From the IMG/VR virus record IMGVR_UViG_2627853701_000009: DNA of 64,000 nucleotides; one strand, given 5' to 3'. A program made the position numbers and the translations under genes. The notes below the pieces were generated by a model. It saw only the letters and a list, made by a program, of their open reading frames with translations. It searched no databases and was not told the origin of the DNA. Below, piece by piece: positions 834-59,466 of the stretch. Origin of the DNA: a virus (lineage: Duplodnaviria > Heunggongvirae > Uroviricota > Caudoviricetes). Numbering within the stretch: the first letter of the stretch is position 1; every line of letters begins with the position of its first letter.

Positions 834-855
834 CCGGAGCCGGACTCCGGTTTTT
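834..855. terminator. Bidirectional rho-independent terminator-like hairpin (CCGGAG-CCGGA-CTCCGG flanked by A and T runs) at tail-fibre end junction a
   Basis: Perfect 6-bp stem with A5 upstream and T5 downstream; same element at 16836-16856 and 20908-20928. Confidence 0.6.
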
Positions 856-868
856 GTGAAGCTGTCGG

Positions 869-1138
869 CTATTTCATTCCGCCAATATTTTCCCACGTCC
901 CGTCAGCACGCAGTATTTGCAGCGGTCTTACCACGCACTGTATCTGCTTTTTATCCGCATCCAGTATCACCACCTGCGTGATTACCCTGTCCTGCTCCGG
1001 GATAATACCATTCTCATCGGACTCCAGAATGTCTGCCGGTCCCAGTCGCAGCTGTGCTGTAAGTAACTCCCCGTTTTCACGGTCATCATGCTTTCCGCAA
1101 CCGCACAGACGCTGCATAAGTTTTTTTAGTATATTCAT
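869..1138 (-). CDS. Small protein (89 aa) directly downstream of tail fibre gene; function unknown
   Basis: ATG at 1138 two bases after fibre stop; conserved in copy B (20943-21212); C-terminal remnant reused at 16871-16942. Confidence 0.5.
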   Translation of the reverse strand: MNILKKLMQRLCGCGKHDDRENGELLTAQLRLGPADILESDENGIIPEQDRVITQVVILDADKKQIQCVVRPLQILRADGTWENIGGMK

Positions 1139-1139
1139 G

Positions 1140-2459: not shown

Positions 2460-2464
2460 CCCAC

Positions 2465-2490
2465 AAAAAAGCCCGCCTGAACCGGCGGGC
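2465..2490 (-). terminator. Rho-independent terminator downstream of lom
   Basis: Minus-strand hairpin GCCCGCC-GGTTCA-GGCGGGC followed by T6. Confidence 0.6.
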
Positions 2491-2517
2491 TGTCATAACA
2501 CTGTGTTACCTGGCTAA

Positions 2518-3117
2518 TCAGAACTTATAACCGACACCCACGATGAAACCGTCAGTGCGCCAGTCGCCACTGCCGGAGCCTTCATAAGCAATATCAATGG
2601 CCACGGATTCGGTCGGGTTAAACTGCACGCCAGCTCCCCACGCCAGAGACGTGTTGCTGTGGCGACCGTCATCACTTCCGGTCAGCACATCATGCGTTTT
2701 CCCCTTGTTGTCGGTCACCTGCAGATAATCACCGGAGAAAGTCGACACACGGCTGTAAGCCACACCCGCCATCGCATACGCGCTGAACCATTCATTCACG
2801 CGCACAGACGGCCCCGCCATATCGCTGAACCAGCGGTTACGCACGGAATCTTCATGCCAGCGGGTATCGCTGTAACGGGTCAGCTGGCGATTCTTGTCTC
2901 CTGCATAGCTGAATGACGTCACCATTCCCAGTGTGTCCGTAAACTCATAACGGTATTTCACGTTAATCCCGTTCAGTTCATCGCTGCCAGGAACGTTCGT
3001 CGAGACATGAAGATACCCCGCGCTCAGCGTTGACTGATGTTCAGACGCCCATGCAGGCGCACCGGATACGGCCAGACAAATGGCTGCGGACAAAATGGCG
3101 GCATAAAGTTTACGCAT
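2518..3117 (-). CDS. lom: Lom outer membrane protein (Ail/Lom family)
   Basis: 199 aa, signal peptide, near-identical to lambda Lom from memory. Confidence 0.9.
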   Translation of the reverse strand: MRKLYAAILSAAICLAVSGAPAWASEHQSTLSAGYLHVSTNVPGSDELNGINVKYRYEFTDTLGMVTSFSYAGDKNRQLTRYSDTRWHEDSVRNRWFSDMAGPSVRVNEWFSAYAMAGVAYSRVSTFSGDYLQVTDNKGKTHDVLTGSDDGRHSNTSLAWGAGVQFNPTESVAIDIAYEGSGSGDWRTDGFIVGVGYKF

Positions 3118-3141
3118 AATTACCTCTCGCTTTTCTGCAAT

Positions 3142-3165
3142 AAAAAAGGCGCCATTTCTGGCGCC
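3142..3165 (-). terminator. Rho-independent terminator between J and lom
   Basis: Minus-strand hairpin GGCGCC-AGAAAT-GGCGCC followed by T6. Confidence 0.6.
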
Positions 3166-3184
3166 CGTATATGGGTTATAAAAT

Positions 3185-6100
3185 TCAGCTGATACTGATG
3201 CCTGCGGTGGCTTTCTTCATCACCACAACCAGCAAATCGCTGATACTTGCTGTGGGATACCAGTTATTCACCAGCCATGCTGACACCGAAAACTCCAGCG
3301 TCATGTGACCGTGACCGGCAGGCATATCAATAACGCCACTGTAAATCAGCGTATTATCCAGCGCGGTACGGTTATAAATTTCAGCACCGTTTTTCCGCAC
3401 TATCAGACGGCATGAGGAGTAAATATCAGTATGCTCTCTCTCATGCTTAGCGCCGCTGAATGCCACCGCCGGAATAACAATCTGCCGGTCAAACGGCTGA
3501 TCGTCATAAACCCTGACGGTAATGGTCCCTGATGGCCACCGCTCCGGTGCCCGGGAGTCCCGCGGAAAAGCCTTACCCACTGTTTTGACTATATCGCCTT
3601 CAATCTGGTTGGCTGACAGTTTCCCCTTAATCTGACAGTTCTCATTAATCGTGACGTTGTTGAGCGTCCCCGCGTTCGCATTCACACTGCCACTGATATC
3701 CGCATTTTTAGCTGTCAGCTTTCCGTCCGGTGTCAGGGAAAATGCCGGCGGATTGCCGCCGGAGGTAATGGTGGGAGCCGTCAGGCGTTTCAGGAACACG
3801 TCGTTCATGAATATCTGATCGCCCTGACCAACAAACATCGGCTTTGTGTTGCCATTCGCAGGATTAATCATCGCAATCCTGTCTGCCGCCAGCAGCACCT
3901 GACTCTGCATTCCTGCTGGCGTATTCTCAATACCGGCACCGATACCCGCAATATAAAGGCGTCCGTCCTTCATCTGTTGCAGCTTCACAGCCCACATGCT
4001 GTTCAGATTATTATTTGTATCAACCTGAACCTTCTGTATCTGCTGGATCGCTGCACTCTGGTCTTCCAGTTTCTTATTGACGGTCTGCGTGATTTCATTA
4101 CTGACATCCGTGATGGACGTTCTGATTTCCGCCAGGTCAGGCGCAAGCTGACCGTTATCAATCTGAGTCCACAACTCCTGAGCCAGATGGGTTTTCCCTA
4201 TCTCTCCTTTGAAAAAATCCAGATAGCCGGATGCATCATCACTCGGCTGGCCAACAGCCTCCACAAATGCCGATTTGCCAACGGTGTTCACACTGCGGAT
4301 ATAAAAGTAATAATCATGGCCCGGTTTGATATTGATACTGGCGGCTATCCAGTACAGCCCCGTGCCAAGGTAGCGGGCTGTGGTTTCAACCTGCCTGATA
4401 TCGGTAATCCGCGTTTCCGAAAACCAGAACTCAAACTGTACCGTCGGGTCATACACCGCAAGACGCGGGACCGCTGTTATCTGAAAATAGCCCGGTGTCA
4501 GCTCAATCTGTGACGGCGCTGCCGGTGCGGCAATCCGGAACGATACCGACGCCGGATCGCCCTGCTGCCCCCACGCATTTACCGCCCGGACTGTCAGCCT
4601 GTAGTTCCCCGGCGCCAGTTGCGTGAAGCGGTATGTGGTTTCCGTCGTCCGGGCCGTGCTGACCAGCCGCTCACTGCCGTCATCCGCGGCCACGGTCAGG
4701 CGAAGCATAAAGCTCACGCCCTTCACCACCTTCGGCGTGTCCCATTTCGCCTGCGCCAGATACTGACCGTCAGCTGCGCTCACCTCCACCGTCAGGTGCT
4801 GCACTGCCGGAGGGATGACGCTGTTCAGGGTGCCTGACTGCGGCTCAAAGCTGGCCCCGTTATCCACGATGGCTTCCTTTTCCGGTACGTGCTGCACCGC
4901 CGTGATGGCAAAGGTGCCGTCCGTGTTTTCCCGGATGGAGACACAGCGGAACAGGCGACGACGCAGTGACGGCAGGGAGAGTCCCCATACACCGTATGTC
5001 TCCACACCATCAGGCAGGGTGCTGACCTGTATCCGGTCCGGCGCGGGGTGTGCAGTGATGGCCACGCTCACCGGCTTACCGCTGCCGTTAATCAGGTTCA
5101 CCGTGGCGGCACCGGTCTCCGGCAGGGTCACCTCACGGTCCAGTGTCAGGGTGCGGCTGGCGGCATCGATGGACAGGATACGTCCGCCGGTCATGGTCCC
5201 GGCATAGTCGTTATCACAGATTTCAATAATGTCACCGGGTGTGTGACGCAGCCCCTGTGACCCGAGCGTGAAATCCACCGTCTGCGTTTCCAGCAGTCCG
5301 GTCTTTATCACCCACAGCCCGGCACGGTGGGCCTGACCGCGACTGGTACAGCCGAACGCATCCATCTTCAGCAGGTTGCGCCCGTAGCGCAGTATGGCTT
5401 CCGGGTCTTCCACCAGTTCCGTGGAGGTCTGCCAGCCGTTCTGCGGGTCGGTGTAATTCACCTCCACCGCCGTGTGGCGGTCCTTCAGGGCGCTGAAGCT
5501 GTAGCGAAACCCCACGCCGTTATCATCCACCACCACATCACTGTTGGTGTACGGCCACACCACATCCGACGGGCTGTCCTGAACGAACGTCAGCGTCTGG
5601 CCGTTCCATACCGGCATACAGCGCATCGCCGAGCAGAAATCACTGAGAACGTCCCACGCCTTACGCTGTTGTGACAGGTACGCATTGAAAGTCATCCGCG
5701 GCTCTGTGCCCCCGAAACCATCCGGGACCGTCTGGTCGCAGTACTGTCCGATGGCATACAGCGCCCACTTGTCAACATCCGCCGCCACCAGACGTTTTCC
5801 CATGCCGTAGCGCGGGTGAGTCAGCATGTCCCACAGGCACCAGGCCGGGTTGTTGCTGTATGCCGGTTTCAGGCTGCCGTCCCAGATGCCGCTGTACGTG
5901 CGTTTTTCCGGGTCATAGTTTGACGGTACCTGGATGATGCGACCGCGGATATGGTAGTTCACCGTCATCTGCTGACCGCCAAACTGCTCCGCATCCACCT
6001 GCAGCCCCACAATCGCCGTGTTCGGGTAGCACTGTTTCACATCGATGATTTCGGTGTATGACGACCAGAGCGTCTTATTCTGCAGCTGGTCCGAGGTGCT

Positions 6101-6661
6101 GTCCGCTGTCTCCCGGACCATCCGGATGTTAAAGGGCCGCTCAGGCAGATTATCCAGAATCACCGACGCCAGAAACTGCGAGGTGGTCTTGCCGTTAATG
6201 GTGACATCCTTTTCCGTCACCCAGTTACCGTTACGCTGCAACTGAATCAGCAGTCGGACAGAAGAGGGATTACGGTCGCCCTTTGAGGTGGTCTCCAACA
6301 GTGACTGCACCCCGAAGGTGACCCGCAGGCGGTCAATGTTCGCGGACGTAATGGTGCGCGTCACCGGCTTTGCTTTCGTCACTTCCACGCCCAGTGCGGT
6401 TTCCGCCCCGGAGGACTCAAAGCCTTCAGGTGGTGTCTGCTCCTGCTCCCCGGCGCGCCAGACCGCTGTCACACCATGTATCACAGGATTACCGTCCGTG
6501 TCCGTCAGCGGGGTTTTGTTCACCAGGATACTCTGCAGCCCCTTCACCGGACCTTCAATCGGCCCTTCACCAATGGCGTCAATCACGCTCATCATCTGCG
6601 TGGACTTAAGATTGTCCTTTGCCTCTACCGGCGTGTGCCCCTTGCCGCCCCCTTTACCCAC
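3185..6661 (-). CDS. J: Tail tip host-specificity protein J (central tail fibre), 1158 aa from GTG
   Basis: Collinear with lambda J over full length; GTG start inferred because the upstream in-frame ATG extension is not conserved in copy B. Confidence 0.9.
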
Positions 6662-6735
6662 TCTGTCCCCCTCTCCTGTCTGATGTCTGAATCTGTTTAT
6701 GCCAGAAAACAACAGGCACCCCGGAGGTGCCTGTG

Positions 6736-6855
6736 TCATGACGGAATAAAATTTCTGAAACTCTTCACATTTCCGGCAATTGCCTGTAGCCGCAATAATG
6801 ACGCTGCATTACTTTTTTGATGCCTGAAAAATAACTCCATAACGTTAATCTTCAT
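6736..6855 (-). CDS. Candidate 39-codon ORF inside the inserted I-J intergenic region ([16 protein letters not shown]...)
   Basis: ATG with GGAG about 8 nt upstream; identical in copy B; flanked by two hairpins; no homolog recalled. Confidence 0.25.
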
Positions 6856-6900
6856 CGTTCTCTCCCGCAGCTCCGCTAACTCTGCGGGATTTTTTTATTT

Positions 6901-7578
6901 TCATCCCCGCCCGATAACCACCACTTTCCCGTCTCCGCCCTCATCACGGGTACTGATGTCCTGGGAGATTCGCCGGGAGCCAACCAGCATTTCACCGTAA
7001 GGCACCGGCATCGGGTTCCCCTGGGCAATCATGTTATCCAGCGAGGAAAAGTACGTGTTCTGTCTGCCGTTATCCGTTGCGCGGTAATCCGGTGTTTTTG
7101 CCTTCGGGGCCAGCATCTGGGCCACACCGCCCAGAATCATGCTGGCTCCAAGTGAAAACAGCATCGTGGTGGCAGAAAAACCACCGGCTGCCAGGGCTGA
7201 ACCCCATAACGCCATTGATGCCCCGGCAGTGAAGAAAGAGCCCACGATGGCTGCCGCCCCCAGCACAATCTGCAGTCCACCCTTTCCGGCCCCGGCCAGT
7301 CGCGGCACAATGTGGATGACCGTTCCCTCACCCAGCTGTTCGTGAAGACGGGCGTACACCGCCTCCGGTGCCGTGTCTTCACCGCGAATACGTATCTGGT
7401 ACCAGCCTTCGTTCATCTGACGGCGGAATCCCGGCATCTGCAGCGACAGGGCACGGATGGCTTCCGCTGCCGTGTTCACGTACAGGCTGAGGCGGCGGCC
7501 AAATCGTTGCAAATCCCCGTGAAGGCAGATGCGTGCCAGTGGCGGTGACGCCAGACAGAATGCGTTCGTCGTTGCCAT
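6901..7578 (-). CDS. I: Tail tip assembly protein I
   Basis: MATTNAFCLASPPLARICLHGDLQRFGRR... matches lambda I. Confidence 0.9.
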   Translation of the reverse strand: MATTNAFCLASPPLARICLHGDLQRFGRRLSLYVNTAAEAIRALSLQMPGFRRQMNEGWYQIRIRGEDTAPEAVYARLHEQLGEGTVIHIVPRLAGAGKGGLQIVLGAAAIVGSFFTAGASMALWGSALAAGGFSATTMLFSLGASMILGGVAQMLAPKAKTPDYRATDNGRQNTYFSSLDNMIAQGNPMPVPYGEMLVGSRRISQDISTRDEGGDGKVVVIGRG

Positions 7579-8219
7579 TTTTCCGAATACCTCTCCCGTT
7601 TACTCAGTTGTTCAGGCAGATGGTGAAGCAGTTCACCGTTGCCGCAGTATATGGCGGCATGATTGGCCACCGATGCGCCAAAGCAGCACAGCAGGATATC
7701 GCCCGCCTGTGCAGAGGACAGGGGCACCCGGTAAAAACCAGTCGCCGCCATATTGTCCAGGTAAAGGTTCTGACCGTTGCGCCACCAGTCATCCTCACGC
7801 ACAAAATCCGGCAGCGTTATCCCCGCCAGATGGTATGCATCCCGGAACAGGGTGTAACAGTCCGTCACCCCGTGCTCAAAACGACGCCCGGTCAGGTGCG
7901 GCACACAGCGGAATTTGTGAATTTCCCCCCGGCAGACCAGCCACCAGGGCAGGGCACTCTTTATCTGCAGCCGCCGGTCGGCCTCGCTCAGCCAGGGCAG
8001 ACCACCAGGGTGGCTGTGAACCAGCGCCACAATCTCCCCCTGCATCTCTGCCTGCAGCCAGTCTTCCGGCGCAATACGAAAATACGCCTCCGGCTCTGCG
8101 GAGATATTCACGCAGGGCTGGTACCGTTCGCCCTCCGGGGTGCCTATCACGAAGCCGCACGACTCCGCAGGCGCACACCGCCGGGCATGCACCAGAATCG
8201 CTGATTCAGTCTGTGTCAT
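7476..8219 (-). CDS. K: Tail tip assembly protein K (NlpC/P60 and JAB/MPN motifs), intact copy
   Basis: MTQTESAIL..., HSHPGG motif, DCYTLFRDAY Cys motif; position between L and I. Confidence 0.85.
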   Translation of the reverse strand: MTQTESAILVHARRCAPAESCGFVIGTPEGERYQPCVNISAEPEAYFRIAPEDWLQAEMQGEIVALVHSHPGGLPWLSEADRRLQIKSALPWWLVCRGEIHKFRCVPHLTGRRFEHGVTDCYTLFRDAYHLAGITLPDFVREDDWWRNGQNLYLDNMAATGFYRVPLSSAQAGDILLCCFGASVANHAAIYCGNGELLHHLPEQLSKRERYSEKWQRRTHSVWRHRHWHASAFTGICNDLAAASACT

Positions 8220-8229
8220 AAAACAGGAT

Positions 8230-8928
8230 TTACTGCGAAAGTTTATTGATGGAAAGGAAACCGCCAAAATTAGCCACCATGCCGCGCATCTCACACCCGC
8301 GCATGCACTTGCTGCATCTGTCCTTACGGATATCCGTGGTGGGGTTGTCGAACTCATCCGCCACCGCAGGACCGTTATACCCGCATTCATCTCCCCGGTA
8401 ATCCCACATACAGGTGTTCGCCAGCATGATGCGACCGGGAAACAGCGCACCGTCCGTCTCCGTCGGTGTTGCCAGCACAAACGAGGCTGTCATGGCCGTC
8501 AGCTCTGACATCTGCTCCACCACCCACCGGTCAGTCAGCTCCTGCTCCGGGTCGGCCTCCGGATTGCCTGCCACAAAGTTCACCGCATCCAGAAAACGGG
8601 CATACACCCGGCGGCGGACCACCGTGGCACCCACCAGGCTCTGCAAATCCTCCGCCATCCCGGTGACAAGACCGAACAGATTGGACACCGTCAGCGACGG
8701 GCGGGCACTGCTGCCCTTTCCGTTCATCTCAAAGCCACTGCCCTCAATCGGGTACGCCTGATATTGCCGCCCCTGCCAGGTCACCGGCTCCCCTTTTTCA
8801 TTCAGCTCATTGCAGAAAAAATACCGCTCACCGCCCTGCGCCGTCAGGTCGATTTCCCAGAGTACCACCCGCGGTGACTGCTCTGATTTAACCGACTCGT
8901 TCAGACTTTCTTCGTGAATATCCTGCAT
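8230..8928 (-). CDS. L: Tail tip protein L
   Basis: 232 aa, matches lambda L including C-terminal Cys cluster. Confidence 0.9.
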   Translation of the reverse strand: MQDIHEESLNESVKSEQSPRVVLWEIDLTAQGGERYFFCNELNEKGEPVTWQGRQYQAYPIEGSGFEMNGKGSSARPSLTVSNLFGLVTGMAEDLQSLVGATVVRRRVYARFLDAVNFVAGNPEADPEQELTDRWVVEQMSELTAMTASFVLATPTETDGALFPGRIMLANTCMWDYRGDECGYNGPAVADEFDNPTTDIRKDRCSKCMRGCEMRGMVANFGGFLSINKLSQ

Positions 8929-9257
8929 CAGTTCACCACCTGCTTAAACTCCGCGCTGAACTCAACGCGCAACATCCCGACCCGCGCAGACCACCCGGCA
9001 CAGGTCACCTTTATCTGCCGGTATGCATAGGGTGGCTTCCACAAAAATGCCTTCCAGCCTCCGTGCTCTGCCAGGAATGCCTCCAGATGTCGGGCCTCCT
9101 CCCGGGTCACGGAAAGCGTCACACGGTATGTTTTCAGGTCAGCATTCAGCCCTGCCGCCATACGCTGTGAGTACCCGTCACCAAAACGCACTTCACGCAC
9201 CGATGGCTGCGAGTTCACCTCCATATCCGGCTTCACTTTCCAGCGAAAGGTTTTCAT
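8928..9257 (-). CDS. M: Tail tip protein M
   Basis: 109 aa, matches lambda M. Confidence 0.9.
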   Translation of the reverse strand: MKTFRWKVKPDMEVNSQPSVREVRFGDGYSQRMAAGLNADLKTYRVTLSVTREEARHLEAFLAEHGGWKAFLWKPPYAYRQIKVTCAGWSARVGMLRVEFSAEFKQVVN

Positions 9258-28789: not shown

Positions 28790-31440
28790 CGCCTGCCTCC
28801 GGAAAAGACGCCGCCATCACGCATCTGCGCCTGAATCTCATCCTGCGCCCCCTTGCGGGCCATGTCATACACCGCCTTCATCAGCTGCGGCCCCGCCTGT
28901 CCGTTGGAGCCGTCGTTCTGAATCACCACGTGATTGTTCTGATTAAAATTAATGCCTTCCGTCCGCCGCATCTGCGCCGGACTTCCGGCACCACCCACAT
29001 AACCACCTTCCGCATAGCCGCGCATCAGACGGTAAAGATTCCCCACACCTATCCGGCTGGTTGCCTCTTTCGTGAAAACAAACTCCCCGCGGTGAACTAT
29101 CCCCGCAGGCTCATATTTGCCGCCCGTCCCCGTAAATCCTCCGGTCGCGAAATGGAAGTTCGCCGCCGCAGCCTGAATGGCCGTCCCCGAGGAAGCAGAT
29201 GCACCACCACCGAAAGCACCGCCAATGGCGCTGCCGATACGCCCGACAATGCCCACCATGGCCTGTTTAAGCAGGATTTCTGTCATCATGGACAGCACCG
29301 AACGGGTGAATCCCCGCCAGTCTGCCTCTGCACCGGTCAGCATCGCCGCCATATTCTGTGCAATACCGTCAAAGGTCTGCGTGGCAGCACTTTTAACCTG
29401 CGAAAAACTGTCCGTCGCACTTTCCGCCCACTCGCCCCAGCCGGACTTCAGCCCGGCCATCCAGCTTCCACGAAGCTGCTCCTCCGCAGACCTGGTGTTC
29501 TTCAGTGCCGATGTGGCCTTCGCCAGCGCAGCCGGATTATCACCGTACACGTCCCGAAGACGCTGCGCTTCAGACTCCCGCTGCGCCTGACGGTCAGTGA
29601 GACCGCGGGCTTTTGCGCTGATGGCGGCCTGCTTCGCGCTCTGCTGCTCTTCAAACCGCACCGCCTGCTGTGCCAGCTCATTCAGGCGTTTCTGGTATTC
29701 AACCTTGTCGCCCAGCTCAGCCAGCTGGCGTTTGTACTCCAGCGTCTCGTCTTTATGCGCCAGCAGGGATTTTTCCTGCTCAGATAACTGCCGTTTCGTG
29801 GCAGCCTCTTTCAGGACCGCATACTGATTTTCCGCTTTCCATAAATCACGGCGCTGCCGGCTGATTTTCTCATTCGCACCGCTGTGTTTTTCCAGCGTCC
29901 TGAGCTCAGCTTCAAGGGCAAGCAGAGCCTCTCTTGCCTGCTCCTCTTCCCTCTCCCCGGCAGAGCGCGTTTTCGGTGATGTATGCTTTTTACCTGTCAG
30001 CTCTTCAGCCAGACGGCTGACGGCTTCCTGCTGCCCCGGACCTTTGCTGACGCCTGTTGCACGCGAGCGGTTGATGTACCCCATTTCCCCCTGGCGTATA
30101 CGCGCATCCCGTTCCGCAATGGATTTTCTCAGCGCCAGTTCATCGCGTTTTGTTTTCTCAATAAATACGCGGTTCTCTTCTGCCAGTTCACCAAACAACG
30201 CACCAACGCCGGGCACATTCTTTGTCGTTTCCCAGGCTGACTGAATAAATTCAGCCAGCGCCAGATCCCCCTGCACAAGCAGCAGCTTCACCTGTTCAAC
30301 GGTTCCTGCCACCACGTCAGTGATCAGACTGAGTGCCCCCAGTGTATGATCACCTATCCATGCCCATGCGTCAGAAGTCCAGGTTTTAACATCGTCCCAG
30401 ATTTTTTCCACCGGCGTGGCCGCTTTATCAAGTTGCTCCAGACGTGCATTCATGACATCCGCAAACAGGGACATCGCCTCCGTCACCGCAGCCTGTTTAC
30501 CTTTCGTGCGCTCAAGCTCATCAATATGGCGTAACTGGGAAACGCTCAGGAAGTTATACTGCTGATTCAGGGAGGCCAGCGCCTTCACCGGATCTGCTGC
30601 AATCCCTTCAAAGGCTTTTTCCACCTTCCCGGCATCGTCCCCCACCGTCTGCAGCCATCTCTGAGAGGTTTCCCCCATGATCCGTAGCTGCCCGGCGGTA
30701 TATTTCCCGCTTTCTGCCAGACGGGCCAGATTTTCTGCCGCCTGTCTGATACCACCACCGGCTTCATCGCTGATCACCCCGGCCATTTTCCACAATTCTG
30801 CCGTTGTGGTGGCAGCAGCCCCTCCGGTCAGGGTCAGTGAACGCAATAAGGCCCGGTCAGCCTGCTCTGCCTGCCAGGCGGCGGCAGCAAGCGCGGCCAG
30901 TACGGCAACCCCGCCACCTGCCGCCACACGGGCCACCGACATAAATCGTCCCAGCTCACCGGCATTCCGGGCATTTTCAGCCAGTGCATTTGCCGTATCT
31001 GACAGCGACTCCTCTGATGATTCAGAGGCATCCCTGATCCCGAGAAGTTCCTCCTTCAGCAGGGTAAGCAGGCTGAGCGGTCCACCGAATGAATCGCTGA
31101 TCTGCCCCCCCTGCTGCAGCATGATAAGGAAGGGATTCTGACCACCGGCAAGCTGAGTGACAATATCCGTGAACTGTGCGGGCAGTGTGCGCATGGCAGC
31201 CTTATACTGTCCGACTGATATCCCGGCTTTTTGTGCAGCCAGCGCCTGTCGGCTCAGACTCTGCTCAGCAGCATCAGCCTGTTTTCTGAAAGACTGACTG
31301 ACTTTCCCGGACATCAAATCAGCAAGCGCACTGGTTTCACCCAGCTCTTTTTTTACCCGCGCTGCCTCTTCAGAAAAACGGGCAGAATCCAGTGTCAGCA
31401 CGGCTGTCAGATCGGCAAAATTACCTGCCATCGTGGTCAC
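28786..31440 (-). CDS. H: Tape measure protein H (copy B)
   Basis: 884 aa, near-identical to copy A. Confidence 0.9.
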   Translation of the reverse strand: MTTMAGNFADLTAVLTLDSARFSEEAARVKKELGETSALADLMSGKVSQSFRKQADAAEQSLSRQALAAQKAGISVGQYKAAMRTLPAQFTDIVTQLAGGQNPFLIMLQQGGQISDSFGGPLSLLTLLKEELLGIRDASESSEESLSDTANALAENARNAGELGRFMSVARVAAGGGVAVLAALAAAAWQAEQADRALLRSLTLTGGAAATTTAELWKMAGVISDEAGGGIRQAAENLARLAESGKYTAGQLRIMGETSQRWLQTVGDDAGKVEKAFEGIAADPVKALASLNQQYNFLSVSQLRHIDELERTKGKQAAVTEAMSLFADVMNARLEQLDKAATPVEKIWDDVKTWTSDAWAWIGDHTLGALSLITDVVAGTVEQVKLLLVQGDLALAEFIQSAWETTKNVPGVGALFGELAEENRVFIEKTKRDELALRKSIAERDARIRQGEMGYINRSRATGVSKGPGQQEAVSRLAEELTGKKHTSPKTRSAGEREEEQAREALLALEAELRTLEKHSGANEKISRQRRDLWKAENQYAVLKEAATKRQLSEQEKSLLAHKDETLEYKRQLAELGDKVEYQKRLNELAQQAVRFEEQQSAKQAAISAKARGLTDRQAQRESEAQRLRDVYGDNPAALAKATSALKNTRSAEEQLRGSWMAGLKSGWGEWAESATDSFSQVKSAATQTFDGIAQNMAAMLTGAEADWRGFTRSVLSMMTEILLKQAMVGIVGRIGSAIGGAFGGGASASSGTAIQAAAANFHFATGGFTGTGGKYEPAGIVHRGEFVFTKEATSRIGVGNLYRLMRGYAEGGYVGGAGSPAQMRRTEGINFNQNNHVVIQNDGSNGQAGPQLMKAVYDMARKGAQDEIQAQMRDGGVFSGGRR

Positions 31441-31474
31441 CTCCTGAAATGTCCTCTGATACCATCAATAACTG

Positions 31475-31835
31475 TCACAACCTCCTTCCCTCCTCCCCGA
31501 AACGGACTCCACCGGCGAGGCCCGCCGCCTTCTGCATCAGTACATCATTTTCGTCCGGCGTCTCCGCCTGTCCTTCCTCTGCCTCCGGAGCGAACAGGCT
31601 GAAATCCGCCGGATGCATATCCGGATCGCAAAAAAACAGGCTGAGTACGGCGTACATCAGCCCGGAAAAATGCATATCCAGCTGGGTATCCTGAAAATAA
31701 TGCGTGCAGTAAAAACGTCGCCAGTCGGCATATTCGGTGGATGTCATCCCGGCAAGCATGGCGCGCCAGTCGGCTCTCTCCATCTCACGCGCCAGTTTCA
31801 GGACAAAGTTCAGCTCGCCTTCGAATGCTTTTTTG
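31475..31835 (-). CDS. T: T portion of G-T via -1 frameshift (copy B); slippery site rc of 31828-31834
   Basis: Same A_AAA_AAG heptamer and overlapping frame as copy A. Confidence 0.75.
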
Positions 31836-32232
31836 ATGTTACCGGCTCAGTCGCTTCTGTTTTCCCGGTTGGTTCAGGATCGGCATCGTGCCGGTTATCC
31901 AGCATACCTGAAAGATAAAGCACCCGGTTCGTTGCCTGATTCAGTGCATCAGCAGGCCATCCCAGCATCACTTCACGGCGGATCTGCTGCATCTCTGTCT
32001 CCGGAGAGGCCAGAGTGCCTTTGAGGGAATGGGAATGCCATAGCGACATCGCCACAAGCAGGGATGCCGTTTCCAGATATCGCTGGTTAATGTGCACGAC
32101 ATCATGCTTCGTTGTCTCCTGTTGTTCTGCGTCTGAAACAAACTTTATATAATCAAACCGCTGCAGCGCAGACAATTCGGAAAGCGTGACGGACACACCG
32201 TTATATTCAAATTGTTCTGTTTTCAGAAACAT
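31810..32232 (-). CDS. G: Tail assembly chaperone G (copy B)
   Basis: 140 aa. Confidence 0.85.
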   Translation of the reverse strand: MFLKTEQFEYNGVSVTLSELSALQRFDYIKFVSDAEQQETTKHDVVHINQRYLETASLLVAMSLWHSHSLKGTLASPETEMQQIRREVMLGWPADALNQATNRVLYLSGMLDNRHDADPEPTGKTEATEPVTSKKHSKAS

Positions 32233-37493: not shown

Positions 37494-41174
<3,681 letters not shown>

Positions 41175-41200
<26 letters not shown>

Positions 41201-41720
41201 TCAGCAACCCCGGTATCAGTTCATCCAGCGCGGCTGCTTTGTTCATGGCTTTGATAATATCCCGTTTCAGGAAATCAACATGTCGGTTTTCCAGTTCCGG
41301 AAAACGCCGCTGTACTGAGAGAGGGATCCCGTCAAGAATACTGGCAATTTCACCTGCGATCCGTGACAGCACGAAAGTACAGAATGCGGTTTCCACCACT
41401 TCTGCGGAGTCTCTGGCATTCTTCAGCTCCTGGGCGTCAGCCTGCGCACGCGTAAGTCGATGGCGTTCGTACTCAATAGTCCCAGGCTGGAGATCTGCCT
41501 CGCTGGCAGCCCTGTAATCCTCAACCTCTTTACGGAGTTTTTCATTTTCGATATCAGCTTCCCTCTGCGCATACCACTGAATTGCCGTGGCGGTATCAAA
41601 TACAGATTCAACGCCCTTACCACCTCCGGAGACGCAAGGGAGCCCCTGAGACTGCCAGCGTTCAATCGTTCGCGGATCCACGTTGAAAATTTCGGCAAGT
41701 TTCTTTTTATTAACCTTCAT
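41175..41720 (-). CDS. Nu1: Terminase small subunit Nu1
   Basis: 181 aa, [28 protein letters not shown]..., lambda Nu1. Confidence 0.9.
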
Positions 41721-41739
41721 GAAACAGTCTCACAACAAA

Positions 41740-41910
41740 TACAGGGTCCGACATGAAAGTGCCCGAAAATGACTTTTTCAGGCGTTTTCATGTCGGACCT
41801 TTACGGATTCGATATTAGAAAAAACAAATAGTTATGTTCGAGAAGTACCGACATGATTTTCCCCGGAAAATTTTCATAAATAGCGAAAACCCGCGAGGTC
41901 GCCGCCCCGT
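41740..41910 (-). promoter_or_regulatory. cos: cos site: cosN 12-nt cohesive end (rc of 41896-41907 is GGGCGGCGACCT) and cosB with inverted Nu1-binding R-like repeats
   Basis: rc of 41881-41910 reads GGGCGGCGACCTCGCGGGTTTTCGCTA as in lambda cosN; GGGTCCGACATGAAA / TTTCATGTCGGACC inverted pair at 41743-41805. Confidence 0.85.
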
Positions 41911-42106
41911 AACCGGTCGGATCGCCGGAAAGGACCCGCAAAATGATAATAATTATCATCTACATGTCACAACGTGCATCTACGCCATCAAACCACGTCA
42001 AATAATCAATTATGACGCAGGTATCGTATTAATTGATCTGCATCAAATTAACGTAAAAGCAACTTCAGATAATACAAATCAGCAACACTGAATATGGGGC
42101 AACATT

Positions 42107-42331
42107 ATGTCATCAAAGAACAGAACCCGCAGAACAACAACCCGCAACATCCGATTTCCAAACCAGATGATTGAACAAATTAACATCGCTCTTGATCTGA
42201 AAGGTTCAGGAAATTTTTCAGCGTGGGTTATTGAAGCCTGCAGAAGAAGATTAATTAATGAAAAATATTCTCAATTTGTACCCAACAAAGACAAACACGA
42301 CCAGAGAACCTGTTCAGACAGGTTTACTTAA
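42107..42331 (+). CDS. Small ribbon-helix-helix-like protein (YlcI/DUF3950-like)
   Basis: MSSKNRTRRTTTRNIRFPNQMIEQINIALDLKGSGNFSAWVIEACRRRL; resembles DLP12 YlcI from memory. Confidence 0.6.
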   Translation: MSSKNRTRRTTTRNIRFPNQMIEQINIALDLKGSGNFSAWVIEACRRRLINEKYSQFVPNKDKHDQRTCSDRFT

Positions 42332-42412
42332 ACGACTTATATATGACACAAAAAGCGACCACTAAAGTCGCTTTTTCTTATGGTAACAGGCAATAACGCT
42401 CTCAGATATTTT

Positions 42413-42727
42413 TTAGCATTTTTTTGACCGCGCGTTTCCGGACGTATTCTGTTCTCCTGTCCCTTTATATCGTCGGAATACCCGCCGCTCTTCAAATCCC
42501 ATTCCCAACTCAGAATGTAGTCTGTTGACCGCTTGTTTTATTTCGGTCAGGTTCACCGGTGAAACCGGAGTCCGGCGCGCCTTACGCAAACACTCTGCTC
42601 GTTTCTGTGCCGCCACTTTTCTTTTCTGGTCATCACTTAGCTGTACCATCACTTTTGCCCATCGTTCAGCTGCTCTCCGGTACAGTCCTTTTTTCTCCAG
42701 ACATTCTGCCAGGTGATCATGTAGCAT
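42413..42727 (-). CDS. pch: PerC-family transcriptional regulator (Pch-type activator of LEE expression)
   Basis: 104 aa, GLYRRAAERWAKVM core resembling PerC/Pch; AT-rich flanks. Confidence 0.75.
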   Translation of the reverse strand: MLHDHLAECLEKKGLYRRAAERWAKVMVQLSDDQKRKVAAQKRAECLRKARRTPVSPVNLTEIKQAVNRLHSELGMGFEERRVFRRYKGTGEQNTSGNARSKKC

Positions 42728-43190
42728 AAGTAACCTCCGTTTATCTACAGACTGCCATCCTGAATTTACCGTCCTTAATAAGACAACAATAAAAAACTAA
42801 TTATATAAAAACAATAAAAATAATATACAAAAAAACTAAACAACAAAGAAAAGCAAATCATATCTGGCATTTTAATTGAAAGAGCAATTACCGAACAAAA
42901 GACGCTGACTATATACTCAAAACCAAACAACAATTCTGCCAATCAGGTATCATGGCAACACACGGAATTACCATGTTTTTGCCTTCTCTGCCCATACAAT
43001 ACGGGCATATACTTCATACTCTATTGTAATATTTCTATCCATGTGCCCCACTCCATTTACCTGTAAATAATATTCAAAATATTTATCACAGAAATCGTTT
43101 TTGGCCATGAACTGAGCACACTATAAAGTCCGGAACTGACTCTTTGTTAAATTACCTTAACGTTACCAGTAACACCTTCATAACAAAACA

Positions 43191-43658
43191 TCACGGTATA
43201 CACTGGGTACGGATATATTCCTGTGCTCCTTCCAGTTGCTTCTGCATTGCCATCAGCCGTTCTCTGAGGATGAAATAATCCCGTTCAGCGGCTTCTGCCA
43301 GTCGGGGACCGGTTGCATTATCCACGCCGGAGGTGATGGGGGCTTTACGCAAGGAGCCTGGACAGTTGGCGTTGATGCGCAGGCGCTTACGACCAGCGGC
43401 AACATCAGCACGCAGAGTTTCATTTTCAGCTCTCGCATCGGCTAACTCCCTCGAGTATTTTGCATCGAGCGCAGCAACATCACGCTGGCGCACCTGCATG
43501 TCAGTAATGGTGGCATTCGCCTGTTCCAGCTCTCTGGCTTTTTTATCGCGCTGCGCTTTGTAGGTGAGCGCGTTGTCACGGTAATGGTTTGTTGCCAGCC
43601 ACAGCGCACCATAGCCAACCGCCAGGACAATAATCACCACACACAGAACACGGTTCAT
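43191..43658 (-). CDS. Rz: i-spanin Rz
   Basis: 155 aa, N-terminal [38 protein letters not shown]..., lambda Rz-like. Confidence 0.9.
43253..43438 (-). CDS. Rz1: o-spanin Rz1 lipoprotein embedded in Rz in alternate frame
   Basis: 61 aa, lipobox LVVSAC, proline-rich [25 protein letters not shown], lambda Rz1-like. Confidence 0.85.
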
Positions 43659-43811
43659 CTCTCTTTCACCCCACCAGTCCCGATAACGTCAGGACTCGCC
43701 AGGCGGTGGAAAAGAAAATGGCAACCAGCATGACTAAAAATGAAATGCCGACAAGTACACAGAGGCTCTTCACCAGCGTTATGAGTTTATCTGATATCAT
43801 TAGCCACCCCA

Positions 43812-44381
43812 TCAATCCGCCTTTGTTATTTTCCCTTTGCCTGTATCAGCCAGGACAAAATCAATCAGCATATTCGCTTCATTTACCAGCGTACGGATTT
43901 TTGATACATGCGCGGCTTTAACCTGTTTCCACTCATTCAGCCCGGTAGCAAACACACTGGCAATGTTTTTATCCCGTTTCATGTCAGCACAAGCCTGGTT
44001 GAGTTCTTCCATCACGCTCATTTTACGGGGATTAACGACAAAACCCTTCGTCCAGTACTCGTAAAGAACATCGTCGCACTCTTCCTGATACCGGATGACC
44101 TTATCGCGGATTTCGGGTTTTACTTTGTTGGGATTAATGGTTTGTAGCCAGCCGGCAAGTTTTCGAAGTGGCATGGACACCATATTGCGTTGTTTCCCAT
44201 CCTCAGCAACCATAACGATTTCCGTTATAGTTGACGCAAAACGCTGTCTTAACTTAGCCAACTGTGATTGCCAGGCCAGCCCCATCCCCGCAACGACAGG
44301 TTTCATGGGAACGTATGGTTCGCCATTATGGTTAACTACATAAAGAGAGTTGCCGTGAAACGGCACGGCCATCATATTCAT
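43812..44381 (-). CDS. Antirepressor-like protein (P22 AR N-terminal-type domain) inserted between R and Rz
   Basis: 189 aa, FHGNSLYVVNHNGEPYVPMKPVVAGMGLAWQSQ motif; location typical of 933W-like phages. Confidence 0.6.
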   Translation of the reverse strand: MNMMAVPFHGNSLYVVNHNGEPYVPMKPVVAGMGLAWQSQLAKLRQRFASTITEIVMVAEDGKQRNMVSMPLRKLAGWLQTINPNKVKPEIRDKVIRYQEECDDVLYEYWTKGFVVNPRKMSVMEELNQACADMKRDKNIASVFATGLNEWKQVKAAHVSKIRTLVNEANMLIDFVLADTGKGKITKAD

Positions 44382-44651
44382 CGGTTATTTCCTTTTAGTG
44401 ATGAACCTTGTCTCACAGGAATCCAGCCCACAGAAAGGCACCGACAGCCAAACCGGTATCCTCAAGGGTCATCCTGAAAGGTTCTGTGTTGTGAGATGCG
44501 CGTGAGATGCGCAGAAATGACAAAGGCATCATTACGGTGCCTGAGTGTTAAACAACTGTTTTGACTTTATTCACTTACATTTTGCCAATTTGCAGGATTT
44601 CGTGTTATCCGTCCATGTAAGCAAACCTCATTTTTCAGCAAAATATTCTGC

Positions 44652-45184
44652 TTATCTGTCGATTCCCCAGCACGCCAGCGCGCTCTCCTGGTCACGACGG
44701 GATACCTGACCGTAACAGTTATTTGAGCGAATACGGCAGTCCCTGCCACCGTCCTTAATCCACCAGCGAATCGCTTCGCAGGCACCTTTTCGATCTCCTG
44801 CATTAATCCGTCTGTAAAACGTCGACGGGAAACACTTACCGGGGCCAATGTTGTACGGACAGAATGACGCGATCCCCGCTTTCTGGGGTTCGGTCAGCGG
44901 CACTCTGATGTTTTTCTCCACCCATGCCAGCGCCTTATCACGCTCAATGGCGTTAACCCGGTCGCATTTTTCCTTCGACAGCTTCATGCCAGGAATAACA
45001 GGCTTACCATCCCCCGGGTGGCTCCACGGCAGATGGTCCAGATACCCGCACCATCACGGTATGCTGTGGTGTGGTTACCTTCCTTTTCATCCAGAAACTG
45101 GTCGAGGATTTCAGGCGCAGACGCCCCTGCACCAATCAGCGCCAGAACGGCAGCCGACAGGCCGTATCTGATTTTTGCGTTCAT
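44652..45184 (-). pseudogene. R: SAR-type endolysin R (T4-lysozyme family) with a 1-nt frameshift near codon 57
   Basis: Two adjacent ORFs (44984-45184 and 44652-44987) in different frames; N-terminal signal-anchor YGLSAAVLALIGAGASA; frame breaks after RGATR. Confidence 0.75.
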
Positions 45185-45234
45185 GGATATTTATCAGGGT
45201 TTATCGATTTCAAATCCCTGGATATGTTAAGTCT

Positions 45235-45582
45235 TCAGGCCAGCGGTGGAGTCTTCAGAGAACCCGTAATTATTCCCGGTAGTTTTCCTCTGTAGGTTAT
45301 CAACACATCCTGCGCCTCTAAAATTACGGGACGCTTTTCCGGTAACGGACCATCCCCTTCACATAACCCGGCAGCAACATCCATGAAAAACTGCTTCGCC
45401 TGCTTTTTCGCCTCAGCTTCGTAAAACTCCAGCGTGGCACCTTCAGTACGGTCAAGACTAATCGCCACATCTGGCAACAACAGTGACGGATACCCACCAA
45501 TTTCCGGTGCCACAGTAACAGTAATCTTATCCGGGTAATTATTTATCCCTTTAACAACCAGTTCGTATTTTTTCTTCATCAC
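45235..45582 (-). CDS. Hypothetical protein between holin and endolysin
   Basis: 115-aa ORF with tight spacing to S stop; no homolog recalled. Confidence 0.45.
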   Translation of the reverse strand: MMKKKYELVVKGINNYPDKITVTVAPEIGGYPSLLLPDVAISLDRTEGATLEFYEAEAKKQAKQFFMDVAAGLCEGDGPLPEKRPVILEAQDVLITYRGKLPGIITGSLKTPPLA

Positions 45583-45583
45583 T

Positions 45584-45799
45584 TTACTCTCCCCGCGCCG
45601 CCTTACGCCGGTCTTCTTTAATCTTGAAATACAGGTTCGTCAGATATGTCAGCAGCCCAAACAGCAGACTCCCCAGCACGCCTATCGCCACCCACTGGGA
45701 CGGAGAGACTTTGTCCAGCAGCTGCAGTAACCAGTATCCCGTCCCCACCGCTGACGTGGTGTATGACACACCCGTTGTGATTTTTTCCATCTGGTACAT
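45584..45799 (-). CDS. S: Phage 21-type pinholin S (dual-start motif MYQMEKI)
   Basis: [72 protein letters not shown]21-like. Confidence 0.85.
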
Positions 45800-45947
45800 A
45801 CCCCGTCTCCCGTTATCCGGAAGCTGACAACAATAAAAAAGCCACCAGTTAACTACTGATGGCTCTGATAACTCATGCAGCGTCTCAGACGACCCACTGA
45901 CACTACCGGTGAGTTTAACGATACCTTCCATTTGACTGGCTCACTTT

Positions 45948-46767
45948 TTATGATGATGCCGGTGCATTTATCTCCAGCACCAGACTTTCTATCTCAACGC
46001 CATACGCTGCATTTTTTGTAACATCCGTCAGCGTCAGCGCATTCAGTCCCAGTGTCAGACTGTCTTTTATAACCTGGAATGCCGGGCCAGCCACTCCATT
46101 CAGTTTCGGAGTAACCGTGGCACTGCCGGCGGTGAACACCAGCTCCAGCGTCTGCCAGTCGTTACCGTAATCGCCGAACTCCCCCAGCTTCGTGTTTCCG
46201 GCTTTCCTGTGATGCATCAGATTCACTCTGCCGTCAGTGGTCTGAGTGAAGTACGACATCAGGAACGGATTACCGGTACCCGTCATCGCCACACCATCAG
46301 GAACGGGAGCATCCGTATACAGATAAATCCCCAGCCCGAACTGATTGTTGGTCAGTGCGCCTGACAGGCGGAACTTACAGTTCAGTCTGCCGCCCTGTGT
46401 CAGCAGGGTAATTGCGTCATCCACCGGATGCGTCAGGGACCAGGTTTTATTGCTCTGCCTGGTGATCTTAAATACACCATCTGACAACTGAATTCCGCCA
46501 TCCTTAATGCTCCAGCCCTGCGCAGCAGCCTCTCCGGCTGCCGGCAGCAGGGAGATTGTGCGAACGGACGTATCTGCAGACGGACCCGATGGCGTGTTGC
46601 CGCCGGGCGAGGGTTTGATTTCCGGTGCCTTACCACTGATGAAGCTGAGGTGCGCCCGGCTGCGTTCAGAATAGCGGTTGCCAGCCCTCTTTCAGTTTGT
46701 GTGTCAGCTTTTCCGCAAGGTCTGACGGCGACGCCGCCCTGACAACATCATAATGTTTAAATGTCAT
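45948..46767 (-). pseudogene. Frameshifted remnant: DUF1737-like N-terminus (MTFKHYDVVRAASPSDLAEKL...EGWQP, nanS-p-like start) joined out of frame to a 179-aa C-terminal ORF
   Basis: 33-codon ORF from ATG at 46767 ends at 46666; second frame open from 46691 to 45948 with no ATG; sits where stx/nanS-p lie in Stx phages. Confidence 0.45.
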
Positions 46768-47290
46768 TATTCCTCCCCTTTCCGGGATTTTCCTCAACAG
46801 TTGCGGGCCACGGTCCGGCCACAAGGAGAATCAAAAGAGGAGAACCGCAGCCCGCAAAACGAAAAAGGCCGCGCAGTTGCGCAGCCTTATAAACCCTGGT
46901 TAAAATCCACACGATAAAAATGACAATGCAAGTATCTCATGCTGTTGCCCGAACCCACTCGGGCTTTTTTTTGCATGTAAAAAGGCTCCTGCGATGAGAA
47001 GCCTGGATATATGCCTAATCTCTGTATACAGCATGATGCCGGGTGCCTCCCGGTGAATTCTGCAATGACCAGACAGAATCCGCAACTTGCCTATACAATA
47101 CGCAACCAAACATCTGTCATTATGCCCCGCCGCTCAGGGGGATTCATCATGCAGGATTTTTTTAACAAACGCTCAGCATGTCAGGCAACAGTCAACTGCC
47201 TGAATTGTGAGGCATTTAACATTTCACTGTCCGGTGTCTTTCCTGTAATAAAAAGCCCGCAAAAGAGAGTCAGGGCAGATAAGTGTGGTG

Positions 47291-47367
47291 TGGTGCGTTG
47301 TACTGGATTCGAACCAGTGACCGATTGCTTAGAAGGCAATTGCTCTGTCCGGCTGAGCTAACAACGC
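47291..47367 (-). tRNA. tRNA-Arg (anticodon UCU)
   Basis: Hand-folded cloverleaf: acceptor GCGTTGT/ACAACGC, D-stem GCTC/GAGC, anticodon loop CTTCTAA, T-loop TTCGAAT, encoded CCA. Confidence 0.85.
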
Positions 47368-47447: not shown

Positions 47448-47523
47448 TGGTGGCCCTTGCTGGATTTGAACCAGCGACCTGGCGATTATGAGTCGCTCGC
47501 TCTCACCGCTGAGCTAAAGGGCC
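47448..47523 (-). tRNA. tRNA with CAU anticodon, most similar to E. coli tRNA-Ile2 (ileX type); tRNA-Met not excluded
   Basis: GGCCCTT acceptor, anticodon loop CTCATAA, T-loop TTCAAAT, CCA; close to ileX from memory. Confidence 0.8.
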
Positions 47524-51996: not shown

Positions 51997-52152
51997 TTAC
52001 TCCTCAGGTTCGTAAGCTGTGAAGACAGCGACCTCCGTCTGGCCGGTTCGGATTCGTACCTCGCAGAGGTCTTTCCTCGTTACCAGTGCCGTCACTATGA
52101 CGATTAAACAGATGACGATCAGGGCGATTAACATCGCCTTTTGCTGCTTCAT
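51997..52152 (-). CDS. hok: Hok-family type I toxin (51 aa); overlapping mok-like upstream frame extends to 52209
   Basis: MKQQKAMLIALIVICLIVIVTALVTRKDLCEVRIRTGQTEVAVFTAYEPEE, near-identical to HokD/RelF from memory; terminator hairpin about 51900-51931. Confidence 0.85.
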   Translation of the reverse strand: MKQQKAMLIALIVICLIVIVTALVTRKDLCEVRIRTGQTEVAVFTAYEPEE

Positions 52153-52487
52153 AGCCTGCTTCTCCTTGACCTTTCGGTCCGTAAGAGGCAATCTATATGT
52201 GACGAGCATATAGGGGCCTCACTTCGATTTATAGTCGGGTGGGGCTTTTATCTATCTGCCGTTGGTGTTCATGCCCGAGGCAGATAGCCTCAAGCACCCG
52301 CAGCAATCCTACTTAACTCTGCCGTTACAGCAAACCGTTTTCGCCCGATATGGGAATTCCCATATCGGAATGAATTCAGTTCACCTGGCGAGGCTTAGCG
52401 TACAATTTTTTCCGTTTTGTGAGCTGCCCCTACATGCCGCTGGCGCGGCATCCGGAAAAAGAATCCACGTCCTGAAGGACGAGGATG

Positions 52488-53246
52488 TCAAGTGCCTTTC
52501 CTGGTCCAGCCATATTTTTTGAATGCAGGCGCCGCTTCATCGGTTTGTAGCCATTCTGCAAATCGACGGGTTTCATCATTTGCATCCTGACGTACTGTAA
52601 TGTTCATATCACGCCATATCACGTAGTCTGGCGCTATTTCCACGACATCACCAATTTCTGGATTACTGGCTGCCCAGTCAGCCCAGGTTATCCAGACATC
52701 TGCTCCAGGCTGATTCTCAAGAGCCTTACGTGCAGTTCCGCTATTGGGCGCATATAAAATAATATTTTTTCGGATTGCGGCGACAGTTTCTATATTCCCT
52801 TTACGTCCGGCAATATCTTCCCAGACGCCAGTGCCTGATGTATTACTGGTACCACCACCATCATTAACAATTACGCCAATCCCAGGTCTGGTCAGGTCGT
52901 CAATACTCCGGATATTTTTAGGATTACCTTTCTTTACCAGTAAAATACTTTTTCGCAGATAAAGAGGCTGAATATCTTTTTCACTGAAGCTGTCTTTATG
53001 GTCCCGAATGATAGCCAGAGCAGATTGTTCTGATGCGCCAAACAAGATATCTGCATTTTTTTTGGCATCTTCATTCCATTTGTTCTGTGGGCCGTAATGA
53101 ACGTTCACTATAATACCTGTTTTTTCGGCATAAAGTTTGGCTGCATCAAGCAAGGCTGTATGCGGGCCACCAGGACCATACAGATTGATATCAGCATAAG
53201 CAGCAGAAGACAGGAATATTAAAAAACCTGCCATTATGTTCCTCAT
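52488..53246 (-). CDS. Periplasmic solute-binding protein, ModA-like (molybdate/tungstate/sulfate family), orphan
   Basis: Signal peptide MRNIMAGFLIFLSSAAYA; ADILFGASEQ and C-terminal AAPAFKKYGW resemble ModA; no permease or ATPase genes nearby. Confidence 0.6.
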   Translation of the reverse strand: MRNIMAGFLIFLSSAAYADINLYGPGGPHTALLDAAKLYAEKTGIIVNVHYGPQNKWNEDAKKNADILFGASEQSALAIIRDHKDSFSEKDIQPLYLRKSILLVKKGNPKNIRSIDDLTRPGIGVIVNDGGGTSNTSGTGVWEDIAGRKGNIETVAAIRKNIILYAPNSGTARKALENQPGADVWITWADWAASNPEIGDVVEIAPDYVIWRDMNITVRQDANDETRRFAEWLQTDEAAPAFKKYGWTRKGT

Positions 53247-53410
53247 AAAAAACTCCTTTTATTGGTTATCATGAAATAAAGTTATAAACACTACAAATAA
53301 TATATATTACATCCAGATAAACTTATCCGACTTTACCTCGTGCATAGCTTGTTATTTAAAGTCAACAAAATAAGGAAAATTATACGCATATTGAAGAGTA
53401 TAAACCTTAC

Positions 53411-59413: not shown

Positions 59414-59466
59414 TTTCTGGTGACGTTTGGCGGCATCTGTTTGCCCATGAACTGATGTCCGCCCTT
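59414..59466 (+). ncRNA. dicF: DicF small regulatory RNA (ftsZ-targeting), with intrinsic terminator
   Basis: 5' segment TTTCTGGTGACGTTTGGCGG identical to E. coli DicF from memory; terminal hairpin GGCGGCATC...GATGTCCGCC followed by TTTTT; directly upstream of dicB. Confidence 0.8.

Follow-up and report, generated by a model that had tools for sequence, protein, structure and literature searches.

The gene at positions 42413-42727, on the minus strand of a 64,000-nucleotide viral DNA (IMG/VR record IMGVR_UViG_2627853701_000009; this whole stretch is hereafter the window), is confirmed by its sequence as pchB, an experimentally characterised regulator of enterohaemorrhagic Escherichia coli (EHEC) located here in the genomic slot where it is usually found; as a feature it was known before. 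Pch is the main prophage-encoded switch that couples LEE (locus of enterocyte effacement) type III secretion to dozens of scattered effector genes in EHEC. We consider it very likely that the window carries a functional copy of pchB, present as a low-GC cargo cassette (a moron) in the slot between the lysis gene Rz and the cohesive-end site (cos) of a lambdoid prophage from E. coli O157:H7. The gene and its Shine-Dalgarno sequence are located as follows.

42413-42727, minus strand: pchB-type gene, 104-aa open reading frame (ORF) with a PF06069 match and identity to Sakai PchB; group 1 (PchABC)
42734-42738, minus strand: Shine-Dalgarno sequence GGAGG, 6 nt upstream of the pch ATG, read from the sequence

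The interval corresponds to exactly one minus-strand ORF, from an ATG at 42727 through its stop codon, and a tblastn search found it to be the single PerC-like ORF in the 64-kb window. Nearly the whole profile of Pfam PF06069 (PerC transcriptional activator), positions 1-89 of 90, is matched by the encoded protein, with an E-value of 5.4e-44 and a score of 148.8 bits against a gathering cut-off of 22.6 bits; NCBIfam holds no model for the PerC family. In every genome inspected, RefSeq gives the identical ORF the name 'PerC family transcriptional regulator', and the ORF recurs in hundreds of genomes.

To place the protein within the family, we aligned it with PchA to PchE, the five Pch proteins named in O157:H7 Sakai, and with PerC from plasmid pMAR7 of enteropathogenic E. 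coli (EPEC). It is 100% identical to Sakai PchB (ECs_2182, prophage Sp11) and differs by one residue each from PchA (L6V) and PchC (V58M), with 99% identity in both cases, whereas identity is 47% to EPEC PerC, 40% to PchE and 28% to PchD. A 15-residue C-terminal tail is present in the window protein, PchA, PchB and PchC, but absent from PerC, PchD and PchE. A homologue search with the single sequence recovered close relatives only (16 matches), and a profile built from PerC and PchA-E was needed to reach the diversity of the family; across 60 diverse homologues, the most distant at 23% identity, ten positions never vary (E11, R17, R18, A19, R22, W23, R36, R43, C46 and G75). A prior reading made from the sequence alone had called the gene a PerC-family regulator and a Pch-type activator of LEE expression, and had proposed alignment with PerC and PchA-E as the check, with failure to align counting against it. 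The family assignment stands, because the Pfam PerC match is full length and the protein shares close to half of its aligned residues with pMAR7 PerC, and the residue-for-residue agreement with a group 1 protein of Sakai supports the more specific claim as well.

The surroundings of the gene are those of a lambdoid prophage between its lysis and packaging functions, with the minus-strand order lysis cassette, pch, cos and terminase genes.

39275-41200, minus strand: terminase large subunit (gpA type), from the ORF and the RefSeq annotation of the identical region
41175-41720, minus strand: terminase small subunit Nu1, PF07471, E 4.4e-91
41863-41907, minus strand: lambda-type cos, exact and unique 45-nt match, with a 12-nt cohesive end at 41896-41907
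42107-42331, plus strand: small protein of the YlcI/YnfO family (DUF3950), convergent with pch, PF13132, E 1.8e-18, and NF041551
42242-43212, no strand assigned: variable cargo (moron) slot with the pch cassette, 971 bp, delimited by blastn against DLP12 and Sp8
42350-42376, no strand assigned: hairpin with a stem of 10-11 bp flanked by A and T runs, seen in the folds of both strands and resembling a bidirectional terminator, between the convergent pch and ylcI-like genes
42728-43190, minus strand: AT-rich, non-coding stretch upstream of pch, 463 bp with 32.8% GC, in which RefSeq annotates no gene
43191-43658, minus strand: Rz spanin/lysis protein, the final gene of the lysis cassette, PF03245, E 1e-46, from the ORF and annotation
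43253-43438, same strand as Rz: Rz1-like lipoprotein ORF embedded in Rz, from the ORF listing

The sequence-only reading had placed the gene beside cos, in an AT-rich island between cos and the lysis genes, and both descriptions are borne out. The 45-nt query GGGCGGCGACCTCGCGGG..., from the left end of phage lambda, matches the window once and exactly on the minus strand (0 matches expected by chance), just upstream of Nu1, and 505 bp separate its cohesive end from the pch stop codon. The interval 41721-43190 has 39.5% GC and the slot itself 38.8%, as compared with 50.5% in Nu1, 54.5% in Rz and 51.9% in the whole window.

In a blastn comparison with K-12 DLP12 and Sakai Sp8, homology was confined to 41000-42241 and 43213-43589. 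The first break falls within the ylcI-like gene, whose first 135 nt are common to other lambdoid prophages and whose 3' end is specific to the slot. Between the breaks, DLP12 carries ybcW-ybcV-bor, Sakai Sp8 carries bor, and iss or bor is found in many other prophages of E. coli. Thus pch is a classic moron in the bor slot, because the homology to DLP12 and Sp8 breaks where these prophages carry bor. The cassette shows the features of a moron in that it occupies a variable slot bounded by conserved phage genes and has a GC content unlike its flanks. Of the promoter and terminator that a moron may bring along, the terminator-like hairpin lies downstream of pch; it was missed by a simple terminator scan because its T run is absorbed into the stem. 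The upstream stretch 42728-43190 is presumed to hold the promoter and the H-NS-silenced regulatory region of pch, but the promoter is inferred rather than located, because a consensus scan of that region found no sigma-70-like site. Two short minus-strand ORFs in this stretch, of 46 aa (42968-43108) and 55 aa (42775-42942), are annotated by RefSeq in neither case and were treated as chance; the 46-aa ORF has no match in Pfam or NCBIfam. An Rfam scan of 41600-43400 at E <= 1 returned only implausible eukaryotic families well under threshold, and hence no known RNA family in the cassette.

The bor/iss moron of lambda, DLP12 and Sakai Sp8 provides the closest positional parallel, as it occupies the same slot between Rz and cos/Nu1 and is host-fitness cargo dispensable for phage growth. 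It differs in encoding a serum-resistance lipoprotein of unrelated sequence and in being transcribed against the late operon, whereas pch is co-oriented with the late operon. The position also agrees with that expected of group 1 Pch, namely a lambdoid prophage and a place directly downstream of Rz, with the same order in Sakai Sp11 and Sp14.

Among characterised relatives, the closest is pchB of Sakai Sp11, where the gene order Rz, pch, ylcI-like, cos, Nu1 and A is identical to that of the window; 2.5 kb around the gene are 98.5% identical, and the late module at 25280-45793 about 99%. However, Sp11 lies at ydfJ and carries nleG5-2, nleG6-2 and nleG2-3, whereas the early region, the int end on the ompW side, paa and the nleA/nleH1-2/nleF end of the window prophage are those of Sakai Sp9 (at least 99% and 97.9% identity). 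PchA (ECs_1091, Sp4) and PchC (ECs_2737, Sp14) are likewise of 104 aa and occupy the same slot by Rz, but the flanks of their loci are only about 93% identical to the window. In Sp4 (Sakai 1150000-1199000), pchA and the lysis segment show an inversion with respect to the terminase and head genes and lie between IS629 and ISEc8, which is another rearrangement around a pch cassette.

EPEC PerC, from the EAF plasmid pMAR7, belongs to the same Pfam family, aligns over residues 2-88 and has all the invariant residues in common; LEE1 activation is reported in the literature for both PerC and Pch. It differs in its length of 89 aa, in the lack of the C-terminal tail and in being plasmid-borne, as the third gene of a perA-perB-perC operon. 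PchD (SpLE1) and PchE (Sp7 / CP-933C) of Sakai share the Pfam family and are also found on horizontally acquired elements, but they have 89-90 aa and other contexts, an integrative island and the early region of a P4-like element, respectively. Little effect of PchD and PchE on the LEE has been reported (PMC6265319).

Among 5426 complete E. coli genomes, 675 carry the 315-bp pch gene (median 3 copies per genome, maximum 5), and 686 of the 691 matching records are at least 99% identical in nucleotide sequence. The hosts include O157:H7, O145:H28, O103:H2, O111:H8 and others. Plasmids of E. coli, E. albertii, Salmonella, Klebsiella and Pantoea carry more remote members of the PerC family. The copy number and location of pch vary with prophage content, and this variation is thought to influence virulence-gene expression between lineages.

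The prophage that carries the gene extends over about 14148-64000 of the window, and the O157:H7 strains TW14359, EC4115 and TR01 have a prophage collinear with it at 99.5%-100% identity, depending on strain and stretch. Beyond its tail-fibre genes lie the following effector genes of the type III secretion system.

15219-15788, minus strand: nleF, effector and caspase inhibitor, PF16809, E 2.7e-8, and annotation
15854-16774, minus strand: nleH1-2, effector kinase, NCBIfam NF041316 NleH equivalog, E 4.8e-175, and annotation
18591-19916, plus strand: nleA, effector, 441-aa ORF in a region 99.93% identical to TW14359, whose annotation names it nleA
20256-20786, minus strand: NleG-family remnant, PF06416, E 1.3e-45, and annotations

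For the NleG remnant, the TW14359 annotation gives a frameshifted pseudogene and the Sakai annotation the nleG2-1 pseudogene. A decayed integrase is also present at the effector end, listed between nleA and nleH1-2. The suggestion that pch shares its prophage with effector genes therefore holds for nleA, nleH1-2, nleF and the NleG remnant. That pch genes are tied to effector-carrying prophages has been stated before (PMC3378721, PMC3299786).

What the gene does is known from published work on group 1 pch genes (pchA, pchB and pchC). Full expression of ler and espA in the LEE depends on these genes, as does adherence (PMC6265319, citing Iyoda & Watanabe 2004, Porter 2005), their copies have additive effects (PMC6265319; PMC3378721 on copy number), and SOS induction enhances them (PMC6265319). 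Pch activates LEE1 only where H-NS, StpA and Hha silence the promoter; it occupies AT-rich regions, mostly inside regions bound by H-NS, and reduces the occupancy of LEE and effector loci by H-NS, and in the presence of Pch-containing extract less H-NS is recovered on LEE1 DNA, with gadE DNA unaffected (PMC4764244). Pch has been located near or upstream of nleH genes by chromatin immunoprecipitation on microarrays (ChIP-chip), and nleA is co-regulated with the LEE (PMC3299786). The label 'activator' is better read as anti-silencer, a protein that counteracts H-NS.

Transferred from these identical and near-identical proteins, the mechanism for the window copy would begin at the LEE1 (ler) promoter and numerous effector loci, where Pch would associate with AT-rich DNA and lower the occupancy of H-NS and StpA, and perhaps of Hha. 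This would de-silence ler, and Pch would cooperate with Ler in switching on LEE type III secretion and non-LEE effectors, which would include nleA, nleH1-2 and nleF of the same prophage. The gene itself could be expressed from its own promoter in the upstream region of 33% GC, or by read-through of the late operon after prophage induction. Such read-through would transcribe pch because the gene follows Rz on the same strand and the simple terminator scan found no recognisable terminator between the two, and it fits the reported enhancement of pch by SOS induction. We regard both routes as likely for the presumed expression of the window pchB.

Several observations weigh against reading the gene as an active regulator of this kind. 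The expression and activity of the window copy are carried over from the published proteins, the LEE target lies outside the window, and the upstream consensus scan yielded no sigma-70-like promoter. The association of Pch with DNA was reported from chromatin immunoprecipitation and crude extracts, and not from purified protein (PMC4764244). Furthermore, near-identical genomes annotate pseudogenes in this prophage, mapped to about 27000-32000 and 45950-46800 of the window: a C40 peptidase (gpK-type tail assembly protein K) with an internal stop, and truncated tail assembly T, DUF6645 and DUF1737 genes. The prophage is probably defective on account of these pseudogenes, and for the same reason its induction may not end in phage production, so late-operon read-through need not yield phage, though pch would still be transcribed. 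The gene could thus be intact yet contribute little, as a redundant, H-NS-silenced third copy in a partly decayed prophage whose two fellow group 1 copies control the LEE. The three pch cassettes in genomes with this arrangement imply redundancy, and the low GC upstream of pch is typical of an H-NS target, which together with the failure of the scan to find a consensus promoter and the pseudogenes would suit a silent copy. However, the ORF and its flanks are conserved at 99% or more over hundreds of genomes, with every inspected match annotated as an intact PerC-family regulator; the GGAGG Shine-Dalgarno sequence is strong; and the additive effects of group 1 copies (PMC6265319; PMC3378721) argue for a contribution from each. 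We therefore consider a minor role unlikely. A paralogue with a function outside the LEE, for example in curli, flagella or biofilm, would have precedents in pchE, which represses csgD and curli, and in pchD with its small effect on the LEE (PMC6265319), but complete identity to PchB, set against 40% to PchE and 28% to PchD, and the 104-aa length with the group 1 C-terminal extension effectively refute it, leaving it barely conceivable.

The reading as an anti-silencer that occupies DNA must also be weighed against the predicted structure. The AlphaFold model is a basic four-helix protein with hairpins like those of tetratricopeptide repeats (TPR) and no classical DNA-binding fold, a resemblance whose scores are generic for helical hairpins and from which no function was assigned; a sequence search of the PDB with the pch protein gave no match at E <= 1. 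Direct binding of Pch to DNA is not structurally obvious, because the model offers helical hairpins in place of a known DNA-binding fold, and this too counts against the reading. The model agrees with a published observation that no known DNA-binding protein resembles Pch. Pch might instead be a small TPR-like adaptor on H-NS, StpA, Hha or RNA polymerase that reaches DNA only indirectly, a minority reading with which the model is compatible. On the other hand, the 12-kDa protein is very basic (pI 10.3, with 25 K+R against 12 D+E), six of its arginines are invariant or near-invariant, and equal occupancy of LEE1 by Pch has been reported in an hns stpA mutant (PMC4764244). In view of these points, we think the adaptor explanation decidedly unlikely, and we retain anti-silencing by a functional PchB as the preferred reading.

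Comparison with Sakai indicates that the prophage is a mosaic, with the backbone of Sp9 (early region and effector end) and the late module of Sp11. Sakai Sp9, a prophage integrated beside ompW, matches the stretch 43201-64000, paa included, at 99% identity or more, and the end with the tail-fibre genes and nleA (17594-25280) at 97.9%. The part in between, 25280-45793, agrees at about 99% with Sakai Sp11; it runs from within J through the tail, head and terminase genes, cos and pchB to the lysis genes. The int end of the prophage adjoins ompW, as in Sakai Sp9. The packaging and head module of Sp9 itself, with its terminase, is of the HK97 type, and no PerC-like sequence, hence no pch, was found in Sakai Sp9. 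The same mosaic is present in TW14359, EC4115 and TR01. One crossover lies, by the alignments, in J at 25280, and the other plausibly in the lysis cassette (43201-46684), because both parents share this cassette at about 99% identity. Since genomes of the TW14359 type keep three copies of the pch cassette in total, the exchange relocated pchB without adding a copy. Recombination among O157 prophages that alters the distribution of pch has been hypothesised before (PMC3378721). The window thus offers a clean example of recombination between resident lambdoid prophages that moves pchB, with an Sp11-type late module placed in an Sp9-type nleA prophage; it is useful for strain comparison, and at the protein level it holds nothing new.

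The early region of the prophage contains a further candidate regulator of pch, between ydfC-like genes and dicB.

59415-59464, plus strand: DicF-like small RNA (sRNA) copy, Rfam RF00039, 43.5 bits, E 1.3e-7, full model length

The score lies just under the RF00039 gathering score of 48. The 5' half resembles K-12 DicF, and the 3' half diverges from it. The translation of pchA is blocked by a structure that pairs the Shine-Dalgarno with an anti-Shine-Dalgarno sequence, and the sRNA DicF opens this structure under low oxygen (PMC7873438, PMC7769764). It is possible that the DicF-like RNA of the prophage could act as a post-transcriptional activator of pch. Pairing of the DicF-like RNA with the pch mRNA (ViennaRNA duplexfold, sliding 30-nt windows) reached at best -26.7 kcal/mol, no better than the mean of -25.9 for shuffled mRNA (standard deviation 2.8). 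When the pch leader and coding sequence are folded, the partner of GGAGG shifts with the length of RNA folded, being at about +25 to +29 or at +96 to +100. One could imagine that this single prophage is a transferable virulence circuit assembled by recombination, in which PchB, the divergent DicF-like sRNA and nleA, nleH1-2 and nleF under Pch/Ler control are joined, pch is wired to the late operon so that induction feeds LEE activation, and PerC-family proteins act as TPR-like adaptors; we give so elaborate a scheme very little chance.

To the left of the prophage, a second, truncated lambdoid tail module occupies 802-14148 on the minus strand, with tail fibre, Lom, J through V, gpU (13474-13872) and a gpZ gene cut at about 14148. 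This module is 94-97% identical to the tail genes of Sakai Sp11 and abuts an IS256-fragment/ISEc8 end beside nleF. At that point TW14359 has ISEc8, nleG, espM1, part of ompW and another complete prophage. The junction at about 14148 is spanned by none of the 5426 complete E. coli genomes, in which matches stop exactly at 14148, and it stems either from a deletion at ISEc8 peculiar to this strain or from a join made in assembly.

Other elements of the prophage lie to the right of the lysis genes. Two sRNA matches stand back to back, with the prophage tRNA genes to one side and the truncated late-region genes for DUF6645 and DUF1737 to the other: AgvB (anti-GcvB) at 46912-46971 on the plus strand, with 56.6 against a gathering score of 56, and a strong match to STnc100 at 46973-47181 on the minus strand, with 175 bits. 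The tRNA genes, at 47294-47367 and 47451-47523 on the minus strand, are downstream of a DNA methyltransferase gene; they are named tRNA-Arg and tRNA-Ile in identical genomes, and argO (anticodon tct) and ileZ (anticodon cat) in Sakai. Finally, the early region carries further virulence cargo at about 52003-53252 on the minus strand, consisting of the hokD/sok toxin-antitoxin system, with a sok match at 52150-52299 (104 bits), and the adhesin gene paa at about 52494-53252.
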